A stretch of DNA of 15,537 nucleotides from a virus (IMGVR_UViG_2690316278_000001); one strand, 5' to 3'; positions 1-14,397 are shown, numbered from the stretch's first letter. The notes: generated by a model from the sequence alone, not told the origin. A program made the numbers and translations.

Positions 1-155
1 AACAGATGTCTGGAAATATAGGGGCAAATCCAATCGTCGCCGTATTCCCGTATTAACAGAGACCGTAGCCCGACGGGGAACTCCTTCTGCGCGAGTGTGC
101 GGGAATAATCAAAAACGATGCACACCGGGGTTACCGGGTACACATATTTCATCAT
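1..155 (-). CDS. hypothetical protein, partial (runs off the left edge of the window; start lies next to an assembly gap)
   Basis: Reverse-strand frame is open for 51 codons from ATG-ATG at 150-155 (MMKYVYPVTPVCIVFDYSRTLAQKEFPVGLRSLLIREYGDDWICPYISRHL...) to position 1. The start context is lost in the N-run at 159-222. One + strand frame is also open here, so strand choice is uncertain. Confidence 0.3.
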   Translation of the reverse strand, partial: MMKYVYPVTPVCIVFDYSRTLAQKEFPVGLRSLLIREYGDDWICPYISRHL

Positions 156-158
156 GCC

Positions 159-222
159 NNNNNNNNNNNNNNNNNNNNNNNNNNNNNNNNNNNNNNNNNN
201 NNNNNNNNNNNNNNNNNNNNNN
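159..222. other. assembly gap (N-run)
   Basis: 64 consecutive n characters; true length and content unknown. Confidence 0.95.
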
Positions 223-236
223 CCGGACGTTATGAT

Positions 237-647
237 TTAGTGCGGAAATATTTGTGTAGTGTTCTGTATGTTCTCAGTAAAGAGTAATGAATTATCAAAG
301 GTATAGTAATACCTTTTGTTTTCGTGGATATTTGTAATCCATCTGAAAACCCCTGCTGTAGCAAGATTTTTCCTGTATTCGTAAAATGATAACTCTCCTG
401 ATTTGAATCCTTTTAAGGTGGCTTCTATAAGGCATTTATTTTTTGAAAATCTTACATTTACAACCTTACCCTGTCCTTTTATTAAAACCGTATTATCGTT
501 TTCAAGAACAAGATGAATATTCTCTGTGGCTAAATAGTAAATGTAATGTGAGACATTGTGACGTTTTAGTTCAGAATAAAACCAGTGATAGTTTAAATTA
601 TTTCGCACTTTATCGAATATTTGTTTAAAAATGGCAACCTGAGCCAT
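237..647 (-). CDS. hypothetical protein, AT-rich accessory ORF of unknown function (136 aa)
   Basis: Minus-strand ORF in the six-frame track (237..662). The ATG at 645-647 has a GGAAGG Shine-Dalgarno 7 nt upstream (complement of 655-660); the ATG at 660-662 has none. The DNA is visibly AT-rich compared with the structural genes, and a long ORF in AT-rich DNA is unlikely by chance. It lies 57 bp downstream of the RHH-like ORF on the same strand. No family recognised. Confidence 0.5.
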
Positions 648-704
648 TGTAGTACCTTCCATGTGATATGAGGGGGCGTAGTCTGCACGATTATCTAAAT
701 TGCT

Positions 705-938
705 TCAATCTGGTCTAACCTGTTTTCTGAGCAATTCAGTAATGTCACTCTTTTCTTTGTTTGCTTCAGGCGAAACTCTTTTTTCTGAGCACAGTCTCCG
801 GCGGCAGGCTTCAATGACCCAGGCTGAGAAATTCCCGGACCCTTTTTGAACAAGAGCGATGTTAATTTGTTCAATCATTTGGTTAGGAAAGCGGATGTTG
901 CGGGTTGTTGTTCTGCGGGTTCTGTTCTTCGTTGACAT
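705..938 (-). CDS. small ribbon-helix-helix (Arc/MetJ/CopG-like) putative DNA-binding protein; resembles the short DUF3950/YlcI-type ORFs found next to cos in lambdoid prophages
   Basis: 77-aa minus-strand ORF. The N-terminal pattern RNIRFPNQMIEQINIALVQKGSGNFSAWVIEACRRRL fits strand-helix-loop-helix of an RHH fold and is preceded by a basic tail. It is divergent from Nu1 across the cos region. Family assignment is from memory, not a search. Confidence 0.55.
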   Translation of the reverse strand: MSTKNRTRRTTTRNIRFPNQMIEQINIALVQKGSGNFSAWVIEACRRRLCSEKRVSPEANKEKSDITELLRKQVRPD

Positions 939-1087
939 GAGGTTGCCCTGTATTCAGTGTCGCTGATTTGTATTGTCTGAAGTTGTTTTTACGTTAAGTT
1001 GATGCAGATCAATTAATACGATACCTGCGTCATAATTGATTATTTGACGTGGTTTGATGGCGTAGATGCACGTTGTGACATGTAGAT

Positions 1088-1305
1088 GATAATTATTATC
1101 ATTTTGCGGGTCCTTTCCGGCGATCCGACAGGTTACGGGGCGGAAGGCGCGCGGGTTTTCGCTATTTATGACAATTTTCCGGTTTAAGGCGTTTCCGTTC
1201 TTCTTCGCCGTAACCTAATGTTTTTATTTAAAACACCCCCTGAAAAGAAAGGAAACGACAGGTGCTGAAAACGGGCTTTTTGGCCTCTGTCGTTTCCTTT
1301 CTCTG
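1088..1305 (+). other. cos: cos packaging site region (cosQ-proximal palindrome, cosN, cosB with Nu1-binding R3/R2/R1 elements and an AT-rich IHF-like site)
   Basis: Near-identical to the lambda right-end/left-end junction as I remember it. CGTTTCC-type Nu1 binding elements at 1190-1197 (R3), 1250-1258 (R2, inverted GGAAACGAC) and 1290-1297 (R1). AT-rich tract 1218-1240 between R3 and R2. 13-bp palindrome GATAATtATTATC at 1088-1100. Lies immediately upstream of the terminase small subunit gene. Confidence 0.8.
1138..1149 (+). other. cosN: cosN core (position of the 12-nt cohesive end), variant sequence GGGCGGAAGGCG
   Basis: Flanks ...GGTTACG | and | CGCGGGTTTTCGC match lambda. The 12 nt between them read GGGCGGAAGGCG, against canonical lambda GGGCGGCGACCT (5 substitutions in the 3' half). 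Comparison is from memory. Confidence 0.6.
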
Positions 1306-1326
1306 TTTTTGTCCGTGGAATGAACA

Positions 1327-1846
1327 ATGGAAGTCAACAAAAAGCAGCTGGCTGACATTTTCGGTGCGAGTATCCGTACCATTCAGAACTGGCAGGAACA
1401 GGGAATGCCCGTTCTGCGAGGCGGTGGCAAGGGTAATGAGGTGCTTTATGACTCTGCCGCCGTTATAAGATGGTATGCCGAAAGGGATGCTGAAATTGAG
1501 AACGAAAAGCTGCGCCGGGAAGTTGAAGAACTGCGGCAGGCCAGCGAGACAGATCTCCAGCCAGGGACTATTGAGTACGAACGCCATCGACTTACGCGTG
1601 CGCAGGCCGACGCACAGGAGCTGAAAAATGCCAGAGACTCCGCTGAAGTGGTGGAAACCGCATTCTGTACTTTCGTGCTGTCGCGGATCGCAGGTGAAAT
1701 TGCCAGTATTCTCGACGGGATCCCCCTGTCGGTGCAGCGGCGTTTTCCGGAACTGGAAAACCGACATGTTGATTTCCTGAAACGGGATATCATCAAAGCC
1801 ATGAACAAAGCAGCCGCGCTGGATGAACTGATACCGGGGTTGCTGA

Positions 1847-6882: not shown

Positions 6883-7326
6883 ATGACGAGCAAAGAAACC
6901 TTTACCCATTACCAGCCGCTGGGCAATAGTGACCCGGCTCATACCGCAACCGCGCCCGGCGGATTGAGTGCGAAAGCGCCTGCAATGACCCCGCTGATGC
7001 TGGACACNNNNNNNNNNNNNNNNNNNNNNNNNNNNNNNNNNNNNNNNNNNNNNNNNNNNNNNNNGCCCGGCGGATTGAGTGCGAAAGCGCCTGCAATGAC
7101 CCCGCTGATGCTGGACACCTCCACCCGTAAGCTGGTTGCGTGGGATGGCACCACCGACGGTGCTGCCGTTGGCATTCTTGCGGTTGCTGCTGACCAGACC
7201 AGCACCACACTGACGTTCTACAAGTCCGGCACGTTCCGTTATGAGGATGTGCTCTGGCCGGAGGCTGCCAGCGACGAGACGAAAAAACGGACCGTGTTTG
7301 CCGGAACGGCAATCAGCATCGTTTAA
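6883..7326 (+). CDS. D: head decoration protein gpD; interrupted in this assembly by an in-frame scaffold artefact (57 N plus a 54-nt duplicated contig end)
   Basis: [41 protein letters not shown]... The ATG at 6883 has an AAGGG Shine-Dalgarno 6 nt upstream; the ATG at 6877 has no spacing. Removing 7008-7118 (111 nt, exactly 37 codons) leaves 110 aa, the length of lambda gpD. Confidence 0.9.
7008..7064. other. assembly gap (N-run) inside D, flanked by a duplicated 54-nt sequence (6954-7007 = 7065-7118)
   Basis: 57 n characters; the 54 nt before and after the gap are identical, the signature of overlapping contig ends joined with a spacer. Confidence 0.9.
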
Positions 7327-11796: not shown

Positions 11797-14397
11797 ACCG
11801 GTAGGCGATCTGGTCGTTGATTTGAGTCTGGATGCGGCCAGATTTGACGAGCAGATGGCCAGAGTCAGGCGTCATTTTTCCGGTACGGAAAGTGATGCGA
11901 AAAAAACAGCGGCAGTCGTTGAACAGTCGCTGAGCCGACAGGCGCTGGCTGCACAGAAAGCGGGGATTTCCGTCGGGCAGTATAAAGCCGCCATGCGTAT
12001 GCTGCCTGCACAGTTCAACGACGTGGCCACGCAGCTTGCAGGGGGGCAGAATCCCTGGCTGATCCTGCTGCAACAGGGTGGTCAGGTTAAGGACTCCTTC
12101 GGCGGGATGATCCCCATGTTCAGGGGGCTTGCCGGCGCGATCACCCTGCCGATGGTGGGGGCCACCTCGCTGGCGGTGGCGACCGGTGCGCTGGCGTATG
12201 CCTGGTATCAGGGCAACTCAACCCTGTCCGATTTCAACAAAACGCTGGTCCTTTCCGGTAATCAGGCGGGACTGACGGCAGATCGTATGCTGGTCCTGTC
12301 CAGAGCCGGGCAGGCGGCAGGGCTGACGTTTAACCAGACCAGCGAGTCACTCAGCGCACTGGTTAAGGCGGGGGTAAGCGGTGAGGCTCAGATTGCGTCC
12401 ATCAGCCAGAGTGTGGCGCGTTTCTCCTCTGCATCCGGCGTGGAGGTGGACAAGGTCGCTGAAGCCTTCGGGAAGCTGACCACAGACCCGACGTCGGGGC
12501 TGACGGCGATGGCACGCCAGTTCCATAACGTGACGGCGGANNNNNNNNNNNNNNNNNNNNNNNNNNNNNNNNNNNNNNGACGGCGGAGCAGATTGCGTAT
12601 GTTGCTCAGTTGCAGCGTTCCGGCGATGAAGCCGGGGCATTGCAGGCGGCGAACGAGGCCGCAACGAAAGGGTTTGATGACCAGACCCGCCGCCTGAAAG
12701 AGAACATGGGCACGCTGGAGACCTGGGCAGACAGGACTGCACGTGCATTCAAATCCATGTGGGATGCGGTGCTGGATATTGGTCGTCCTGATACCGCGCA
12801 GGAGATGCTGATTAAGGCAGAGGCTGCGTTTAAGAAAGCAGACGACATCTGGAATCTGCGCAAGGATGATTATTTCGTTAACGATGAAGCACGGGCGCGT
12901 TACTGGGATGATCGTGAAAAAAAACGCCTGGAGCGGGATGCAGCCCAAAAGAGGGTAGATCAACAGCGTCAACAGGACAAAAATGCGCAGCAGCAGAGCG
13001 ATACCGAAGCGTCACGGCTGAAATATACCGAAGAGGCGCAGAAGGCTTACGAACGGCTGCAGACGCCGCTGGAGAAATATACCGCCCGTCAGGAAGAACT
13101 GAACAAGGCACTGAAAGACGGAAAAATCCTGCAGGCAGATTACAACACGCTGATGGCGGCGGCGAAAAAGGATTATGAAGCGACGCTGAAAAAGCCGAAA
13201 CAGTCCGGCGTGAAGGTGTATGCGGGCGATCGTCAGGAAGACAGTGCTCATGCGGCCCTGCTGACGCTTCAGGCAGAACTCCGGACGCTGGAGAAGCATG
13301 CCGGAGCGAATGAGAAAATCAGCCAGCAGCGCCGGGATTTGTGGAAGGCAGAAAGTCAGTTCGCGGTACTGGAGGAGGCGGCACAACGTCGCCAGCTGTC
13401 CGCACAGGAGAAATCCCTGCTGGCGCATAAAGACGAGACGCTGGAGTACAAACGCCAGCTGGCTGCACTTGGTGACAAGGTTACGTATCAGGAGCACCTG
13501 AATGCGCTGGCGCAGCAGGCGGATAAATTCGCACAGCAGCAACGGGCAAAACGGGCAGCCATTGATGCGAAAAACCGGGGGCTGACTGACCGGCAGGCAG
13601 CGCGGGAAGCCACGGAACAGCGCCTGAAGGAACAGTATGGCGATAATCCTCTGGCGCTGAATAACGTCATGTCAGAGCAGAAAAAGACCTGGGCGGCTGA
13701 AGACCAGCTTCGCGGGAGCTGGATGGCAGGCCTGAAGTCCGGCTGGAGTGAGTGGGAAGAGAGCGCCACGGACAGTATGTCACAGGTTAAAAGTGCAGCC
13801 ACGCAGACCTTTGATGGTATTGCACAGAATATGGCGGCGATGCTGACCGGCAGTGAACAGAACTGGCGCAGCTTCACCCGCTCCGTGCTGTCCATGATGA
13901 CAGAAATTCTGCTTAAGCAGGCAATGGTGGGGATTGTCGGGAGTATCGGCAGCGCCATTGGCGGGGCTGTTGGTGGCGGCGCATCCGCGTCAGGTGGTAC
14001 AGCCATTCAGGCCGCTGCGGCGAAATTCCATTTTGCAACCGGGGGATTTACGGGAACCGGCGGCAAATATGAGCCAGCGGGGATTGTTCACCGTGGTGAA
14101 TTTGTCTTCACGAAGGAGGCAACCAGCCGGATTGGCGTGGGGAATCTCTACCGGCTGATGCGCGGCTATGCGGAAGGTGGTTATGTGGGCGGTGCCGGAA
14201 GTCCGGCGCAGATGCGGCGGGCTGAAGGCATTAATTTTAATCAGAACAATCACGTGGTGATTCAGAACGACGGTACGAATGGTCTGCCAGGTCCACAGAT
14301 GATGAAGGCCGTGTATGACATGGCCCGCAAGGGTGCCCGTGATGAAATTCAGACACAGATGCGTGATGGTGGCCAGTTCTCCGGAGGTGGACGATGA
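11789..14397 (+). CDS. H: tail tape measure protein (gpH); reading frame broken in this assembly by a scaffold artefact at 12541-12587
   Basis: Two track ORFs (11789..12697 and 12610..14397) are the N- and C-terminal parts of one gene. Removing the 38-N run plus the 9-nt duplicated GACGGCGGA (47 nt) joins ...ARQFHNVTA to EQIAYVAQLQRSGDEAG... in frame and gives 853 aa, the length of lambda gpH. Long K/R/E/Q-rich helical middle and Gly-rich C-terminal segment are typical of tape measure proteins. Confidence 0.88.
12541..12578. other. assembly gap (N-run) inside H, flanked by duplicated GACGGCGGA
   Basis: 38 n characters with 9 nt repeated on both sides (12532-12540 and 12579-12587); produces an apparent frameshift. 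Confidence 0.85.

Follow-up and report, generated by a model that had tools for sequence, protein, structure and literature searches.

Two separable lambdoid prophage genes of the DUF3950 and DUF1398 families as probable moron-type accessory genes between the lysis genes and cos

The stretch of DNA analyzed here, a viral sequence of 15,537 nucleotides (IMGVR_UViG_2690316278_000001; hereafter the window), comprises the right end of the genome of a lambda-like prophage and, joined to it across cos, the Nu1/A morphogenesis genes. Between the lysis side and cos it carries two minus-strand genes, one encoding a 136-amino-acid protein of the DUF1398 family (237 to 647; homologous to ydfO, ybcV, and lambdap78) and the other a 77-amino-acid protein of the DUF3950, or YlcI-YnfO, family (705 to 938). 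We consider it probable that these are two separate, nonessential accessory genes of the moron type, located between the lysis genes and cos and opposed to the late operon. The pair itself is already known: both are widely annotated genes of lambdoid prophages, and they stand in the same arrangement as ynfO-ydfO in the Qin prophage of Escherichia coli K-12.

An open reading frame (ORF) scan and the sequence itself bore out the layout described in an earlier, sequence-only reading of the window, namely two minus-strand ORFs, a 57-bp gap, and a GGAAGG Shine-Dalgarno sequence. The spacer (648 to 704) separates the stop codon of the 77-amino-acid ORF (705 to 707) from an ATG at 647. The minus strand at the DUF1398 start reads ATGGAAGGTACTACAATGGCT, with GGAAGG (652 to 657) 7 nt upstream of this ATG and a −10-like GATAAT at 695 to 690. 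The frame also contains an upstream ATG at 662, so that the full ORF (237 to 662, minus strand) encodes 141 amino acids and the internal ATG gives the 136-amino-acid product. RefSeq annotates both the 136-amino-acid and the 77-amino-acid forms in E. coli locus L001, which is 99.2% identical. A run of Ns (159 to 222), beginning 14 nt downstream of the DUF1398 stop codon, masks the 3′ flank, including any terminator. It is one of three masked runs in the window (the others are at 7008 to 7064 and 12541 to 12578), and its 64 Ns correspond to 28 nt in L001 (3973 to 4000), so the masked stretch either differs in length from L001 or is not to scale.

The 136/141-amino-acid product matched Pfam PF07166 (DUF1398) over the entire profile (positions 1 to 119 of 119; E 3.3e-43, 147 bits against a cutoff of 22) and the nuclear magnetic resonance (NMR) structure of E. 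coli YdfO, PDB 2HH8 (E 1.4e-69). Judged by this match, it shares the fold of the solved YdfO. It is 75 to 78% identical to YdfO of Qin (75%), YbcV of the K-12 prophage DLP12, and lambdap78 of phage lambda. Hence the earlier view that the product has no recognizable motif did not survive, as it is a textbook DUF1398 protein with a structure in 2HH8; the accompanying suggestion that it is uncharacterized still holds for its biochemical function. Among the diverged copies (the window and L001 versus lambda, ybcV, and ydfO), pairwise ratios of nonsynonymous to synonymous substitution rates (dN/dS) were 0.18 to 0.39, with dS between 0.34 and 0.67.

The 77-amino-acid product matched Pfam PF13132 (DUF3950; E 2e-20, 72.8 bits against a cutoff of 25) and NCBIfam NF041551 (35.2 bits against a cutoff of 30), and it is 97% identical to YnfO of K-12. 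Its sequence comprises a basic N-terminal arm, a conserved core (residues 1 to 50), and a variable C-terminal tail. Across 48 codons of the core, the window and a copy from a Shiga toxin (Stx)-converting phage differ at 11 codons synonymously and at 5 nonsynonymously. Given profile matches far over threshold and evidence of purifying selection, we concluded that the two frames are not chance ORFs. Coding constraint, which the earlier reading had singled out for checking, is thus evident in both genes, in dN/dS and in the codon differences, respectively.

The base composition of both genes sets them apart from their surroundings. GC content is 0.314 in the DUF1398 gene (237 to 647) and 0.444 in the DUF3950 gene (705 to 938), compared to 0.527 in the Nu1 homolog and 0.570 in the rest of the window, and the same deviation appears when the comparison is made with the morphogenesis genes (0.57). 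In addition, each gene is present or absent across lambdoid phages at the lysis-cos junction. These are properties expected of morons as Hendrix and colleagues defined them, and they agree with what had been proposed from the sequence: nonmorphogenetic genes in markedly AT-rich DNA between the lysis side and cos. The two genes are also antisense to the late operon, laid out in the moron-like manner of lambda bor.

To see how far the two genes depend on each other, we compared their distributions. Of 5,426 complete E. coli genomes, 4,480 matched the 1.1-kb region, 3,011 carried a full-length DUF1398 gene, and 4,162 carried the DUF3950 core, in up to 12 copies each; the DUF1398 allele was found at ≥99% identity in 1,063 records. 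In the phage collection, tblastn returned 43 records with DUF1398 and 155 with DUF3950, the latter including about 70 Stx-converting phages. In one such phage, Stx2a_WGPS8, DUF3950 is flanked by the lysis genes on one side and an HNH-endonuclease/terminase module on the other, and no DUF1398 gene is annotated in the stretch shown. In a dozen E. coli prophage loci, DUF1398 is accompanied by a Nu1 homolog, usually some 750 bp away; DUF3950 is undetectable in them, and no recognizable domain was found between DUF1398 and the Nu1 homolog. In locus L227, bor comes next after DUF1398, which lies about 750 bp from Nu1; DUF3950 was again not detected. More distant DUF1398 genes (33 to 37% identity) occur without DUF3950 in a Salmonella-type locus, beside a SopE-family effector gene, and in K-12 itself, where ycgX is a stand-alone paralog next to bluR. 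Locus L042, whose diverged pair has stop codons in the DUF3950 frame, was not used as evidence. A check for conserved co-occurrence, suggested in the earlier reading, therefore gave a negative answer: the two genes do not form a conserved unit beyond close relatives, and each is often found alone.

The DUF1398 gene also carries an upstream sequence of its own. The block from GGTCAGACC to the DUF1398 ATG is conserved in the window, lambda, DLP12, and Qin. In lambda and DLP12, similarity stops immediately upstream of this block, implying that the block travels with the DUF1398 gene. Accordingly, lambda and DLP12, in which DUF1398 has no DUF3950 gene immediately upstream, still carry the spacer and adjoining sequence as far as approximately position 725, and the mosaic joint with these two falls inside the DUF3950 C-terminal tail, near window positions 725 to 776. 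The block contains a promoter-like site, TAGACC-16-GATAAT (717 to 690, minus strand), and a PdhR-box-like element, ATCTGGTCTAACCTGTT (708 to 724, strand unassigned), which overlaps the last DUF3950 codons and the −35 region of the promoter-like site. In K-12, genomic SELEX (systematic evolution of ligands by exponential enrichment) placed PdhR boxes upstream of ybcV (AtcTGGTctgACCtcTT) and at ydfO (AAcaGGTcagACCAgaT), and ybcV mRNA was down 10-fold in a pdhR mutant (PMC7660256). We located these boxes by eye in the ybcV and ydfO upstream sequences, at positions homologous to window 708 to 724. The window box differs from those of K-12 only in its 3-nt nonconsensus spacer (GGTtagACC versus GGTcagACC).

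The DUF1398 residues kept in distant homologs are mostly aromatic or hydrophobic, along with R15, T41, N43, R112, and N119. No acidic, histidine, or cysteine residue is conserved across these distant homologs, which makes the protein look less like an enzyme and more likely to be a binder of some partner. It has no hydrophobic segment (maximum 19-residue Kyte-Doolittle average, 0.39), and a Pfam search found no enzymatic or sensor domain in either protein. A weak internal repeat relates residues 16 to 48 to residues 84 to 124, each half comprising a helix and strands (hhalign P 0.0037), and suggests an origin of the domain from a duplicated alpha-beta(3) unit.

Published work on homologs adds further observations. 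CRISPR interference (CRISPRi) knockdown of lambdap78 gave an efficiency of plating of 1.9, and the gene was scored as nonessential for lambda plaque formation (PMC10695390). Overexpression of ybcV changes glycogen accumulation, the ASKA clone having been recovered alive (PMC2853380), and ydfO was induced 116-fold by ionic liquid as measured by quantitative PCR (PMC4077768). The last paper also states that YdfO overexpression raises H2O2 resistance, a statement that we left unused; the paper's reference 32 was not resolved. A cryptic-prophage paper examined as the likely source, PMC3105296, names YfdK, YfdO, and YfdS of CPS-53, and ydfO is absent from its main text; the H2O2 statement appears to be a gene-name mix-up.

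For the 77-amino-acid protein, a ribbon-helix-helix (RHH)-like character had been proposed from the sequence. The AlphaFold2 model has an extended, unassigned N terminus (residues 1 to 18) followed by two helices (19 to 32 and 34 to 54), with predicted local distance difference test (pLDDT) values of 88 to 90 over residues 20 to 50. As modeled, the monomer fits an RHH protein, making this fold plausible. Both hhalign and Smith-Waterman alignments placed YnfO N14-I-R16-F-P18 on N11-L-R13-W-P15 of the repressor Arc in the same register; in Arc, N11 and R13 contact bases. The resemblance to Arc falls short of significance (hhalign probability 1.8%, P 0.027; shuffle p of approximately 0.02 to 0.035), BLASTP of the DUF3950 protein against Arc produced no alignment, Pfam returned no RHH family for the protein at E values up to 1, and Foldseek found no match for the model. 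We therefore regard the RHH character as plausible, with an extended N terminus and two helices in the model, but not as proven.

Based on these observations, we propose how the two genes might act. DUF3950 is a small, very basic protein; an Arc-like RHH dimer that binds DNA is the most likely structure of its first 50 residues, and this dimer may serve as a transcription regulator. The DUF1398 product would be a soluble alpha/beta protein of known fold (2HH8), more likely acting through a binding partner. In the lysogen, the DUF1398 gene is probably transcribed independently, from a candidate promoter spread over the 57-bp spacer and the 3′-terminal part of the DUF3950 gene. Given that the promoter box is bound in K-12 by the host pyruvate sensor PdhR, DUF1398 expression could be coupled to the carbon status of the host. 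We infer both PdhR control and lysogen expression for this prophage. A more specific version of this proposal is that DUF1398 is a PdhR-controlled lysogenic-conversion factor that binds a host protein and thereby changes stress tolerance or the central carbon or glycogen metabolism of the host, while DUF3950 is an Arc-like regulator common to lambdoid phages with unrelated packaging modules. We regard this combination as quite unlikely to be right in full. To our knowledge, neither a carbon-linked conversion factor nor a shared Arc-like regulator has been described for these families.

Several observations weigh against the picture of two separate accessory genes with their own expression. The genes are adjacent in 77 of 80 and in 78 of 79 IMG/VR loci of close relatives. 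Adjacency in such near-identical relatives would follow from close relatedness only, and, being nearly constant, it leaves a functional link between the two genes within this lineage conceivable. The promoter-like site matches at only 9 of 12 positions, and shuffled sequence would be expected to yield as many such sites as the region contains, which makes the site weak evidence by itself. Between the ynfO-type and ybcV-type arrangements, the distance from the PdhR box to the −10 element changes by 3 nt, and expression is known from the literature on K-12 homologs, none of it from this prophage. Finally, no informative structural neighbors of DUF1398 were found, which is weak evidence, as the AlphaFold2 model of this protein was poor (pLDDT 54).

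One alternative is that DUF3950 is tied to the lysis/packaging junction, for example, as a small DNA-binding regulator of transcription entering or leaving the cos-terminase region, and that its adjacency to DUF1398 is an accident of mosaicism. The DUF3950 gene keeps one position, divergent from the terminase genes, whether the packaging module is that of lambda (Nu1/A) or the unrelated one of Stx2a_WGPS8 (HNH endonuclease plus terminase), and it greatly outnumbers DUF1398. When lambda-type and Stx-type phages are compared, its first ∼48 codons are ∼85% identical in DNA sequence (window 795 to 938 versus positions 2501 to 2728 of locus L239), whereas the flanks cannot be aligned; the mosaic boundary falls exactly at the DUF3950 start codon, upstream of which the sequences are unalignable. 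A conserved binding site, however, was not found. The noncoding stretch from the start codon to cosN (939 to 1135) is nearly identical in lambda, Qin, and phage 2H10 and contains inverted repeats I4 and I8, but it is absent upstream of the Stx-phage DUF3950 gene and so cannot be an obligatory operator for the protein. Its palindromes (1008 to 1040 and 1086 to 1102), considered as a DUF3950 operator, were rejected on the same ground of not being conserved upstream of the Stx-phage copy; we mention the stretch for context only. Minimal lambda cos fragments package without the DUF3950 gene, and DUF3950 has no known phenotype, both of which speak against a role at the junction. Overall, we regard this alternative as unlikely.

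We give only a slim chance to the idea that one or both genes encode an unrecognized antiphage or superinfection-exclusion function acting from the prophage. Their position and orientation are typical of morons expressed in the lysogen, their composition is AT rich, and ydfO loss is listed once for phage-resistant avian pathogenic E. coli (APEC) mutants, in a gene-loss table without a functional test (PMC8711792). Against this, PADLOC gave no significant match, its best being Csx23 for DUF1398 (E 0.025, 12.6 bits) with none for DUF3950, and the lack of enzymatic or sensor domains in Pfam noted above also argues otherwise. Retention of the genes in the decayed cryptic prophages DLP12 and Qin, and beside a Salmonella effector gene, would fit morons of general benefit to the host equally well.

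The sequence-only reading had likened the pair to a type II toxin-antitoxin module. In such a module, the RHH-like 77-amino-acid protein would be the antitoxin and autorepressor and the DUF1398 protein the toxin. A small gene does lie upstream of a slightly larger one on the same strand, 57 bp away, and the two are adjacent in nearly all close relatives. Yet the distributions described above run counter to such a module: intact DUF1398 genes lack a detectable DUF3950 partner in a dozen Nu1-carrying E. coli prophage loci, the Salmonella-type locus, and K-12 ycgX, while DUF3950 outnumbers DUF1398 by a factor of ∼2.5 to 3.6 and is found by itself in Stx phages. Moreover, lambda and DLP12 place ∼610 bp and a gene on the opposite strand between the two, and the conserved upstream module of DUF1398 argues against a coupled operon with one promoter. 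Neither protein matched a toxin or defense profile in Pfam or PADLOC. The ASKA glycogen screen recovered a living ybcV overexpression clone (PMC2853380), and the 2HH8 structure was determined on YdfO made by itself, from which nontoxicity can be surmised. We rejected the toxin-antitoxin model, which we now hold to be very improbable, on the basis of gene distribution and the lack of toxin or defense profiles.

There is next to no chance that the 136-amino-acid protein is structural, as the labels in PHROGs (PHROG 413) and in GenBank/RefSeq phage records (e.g., NC_001416, NC_019711, and KT232076) would have it, given that its gene lies on the strand opposite the late operon, that lambdap78 is nonessential for plaque formation, that the protein has no hydrophobic segment, that the gene persists in nonphage contexts and in cryptic prophages from which the head genes are gone, and that the labels come without an experimental note. 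"Head protein" appears in PHROG 413 and the RefSeq phage reannotation, and "putative envelope protein" in lambda records. We rejected both labels on account of strand, nonessentiality, and the lack of hydrophobic segments; they look like propagated annotation errors. The reading of two separate moron-type genes thus remains the one that we favor.

Beyond the two genes, the DNA toward the Nu1 homolog (start at 1327) and the large terminase subunit (start at 1847), both located by the ORF scan, has features of its own. The cohesive-end sequence of the window (cosN, 1136 to 1147) is GGGCGGAAGGCG, compared to GGGCGGCGACCT in lambda. Among 240 fetched loci, 13 carry GGGCGGAAGGCG, a count that includes overlapping fetches of the same contigs, and 126 the lambda type; GGGCGGAAGGCG is a minority variant of cos that recurs among Nu1/A prophages otherwise resembling lambda. 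A 17-nt inverted repeat (1130 to 1146 and 1200 to 1216; 82% complementary) pairs the left half of cosN with the segment just after the first Nu1-site-like repeat, and alongside the variant cohesive end the substitutions that distinguish the window from lambda (CTTCTTCGCCGTAACCT versus CTTCTTCGTCATAACTT) raise the complementarity of this repeat. Of the promoter-like matches in the region, GTGACA-16-TATCAT scored highest (10 of 12 positions; 1073 to 1102, plus strand, toward Nu1); it lies inside the palindrome ATGATAAT/ATTATCAT, ∼35 bp to the left of cosN. This palindrome and its hexamers are nearly identical in lambda and Qin, with three substitutions. An Rfam scan of window positions 1 to 1500 returned only chance matches to microRNA models, on an inverted repeat (1246 to 1302) that pairs Nu1-site-like repeats.

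The database survey also turned up a source of contamination. Most nonenterobacterial "genomes" with the gene pair contain lambda-identical DNA on contigs of ∼3.5 kb or ∼48.5 kb (loci L014 to L041; many of the ENA contigs are ∼3.5 kb). Examples include Pedobacter, Flavobacterium, Cohnella, Arcanobacterium, and Brevibacillus "plasmids." Such contigs are most likely lambda control or spike-in DNA (e.g., the nanopore control strand) in those assemblies, not DNA of real hosts. A record named "Campylobacter phage CJLB-4," and proteins labeled Staphylococcus aureus or Bacillus, look like the same lambda-control artifact. When genome contigs were scanned with the DUF1398 protein alone, the matches were mostly contamination by lambda control DNA.

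As a discovery, the pair is of small value: annotations of both already exist for phage lambda, K-12, and thousands of E. coli genomes, and for one of the two a structure is available. Still, two of the most widespread genes of lambdoid prophages, present in phage lambda itself, remain without known function, a rather neglected question. The separability of the genes, the DUF1398 promoter module with its PdhR box, and the presence of DUF3950 across terminase types narrow the hypotheses that can be tested. By the same token, the comparative data argue against spending effort on a toxin-antitoxin model.

Among known systems, the closest counterpart is the Qin pair of K-12, ynfO (b4533) and ydfO (b1549). 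As in the window, a 77-amino-acid DUF3950 protein, a 57-bp spacer, and a 136-amino-acid DUF1398 protein follow one another; the pair is divergent from a Nu1 homolog, nohA, across a cos-like region; and the conserved upstream module with its PdhR box is present. The window differs from Qin in carrying another DUF1398 allele (dS 0.67 against ydfO) and in having an apparently intact morphogenesis region, whereas Qin is a decayed cryptic prophage. The closest annotated relative, L001, has no bor gene annotated beside DUF1398 and instead carries a KilA-N gene and a hypothetical gene upstream, unlike lambda and DLP12.

The right end of lambda (lambdap78 and an unnamed ylcI-like ORF) and the borD-ybcV-ybcW-ylcI-nohD segment of DLP12 show the same families, strands, and position between Rz/bor and cos as the window, and their cos-proximal DNA is 95% identical to it. 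In contrast to the window, the ∼610 extra bp between their two genes include a plus-strand gene, lambdap79 or ybcW, and their DUF3950 protein is shorter (64 amino acids), with a C-terminal tail different from the YnfO-type tail of the window. Overlapping convergent transcription of ybcW and ylcI has been reported (PMC12288877).

Two broader comparisons can be drawn. Arc and Mnt of phage P22 and other RHH (MetJ/Arc/CopG) repressors share with DUF3950 a small size, a basic arm at the N terminus, and two helices that, in the DUF3950 prediction, come after an extended segment, although the similarity is statistically not significant and no RHH family passes in Pfam. The lambda genes bor and lom, like the two genes of the window, are nonessential and lie in or beside the late region, outside morphogenesis. 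The DUF1398 gene is on the minus strand, as is bor, and in lambda, DLP12, and L227 the two are immediate neighbors. A further point of comparison with the lambda morons is its base composition, which departs from that of the surroundings. Bor and Lom, however, are envelope proteins with known phenotypes, whereas the DUF1398 protein is predicted to be soluble.

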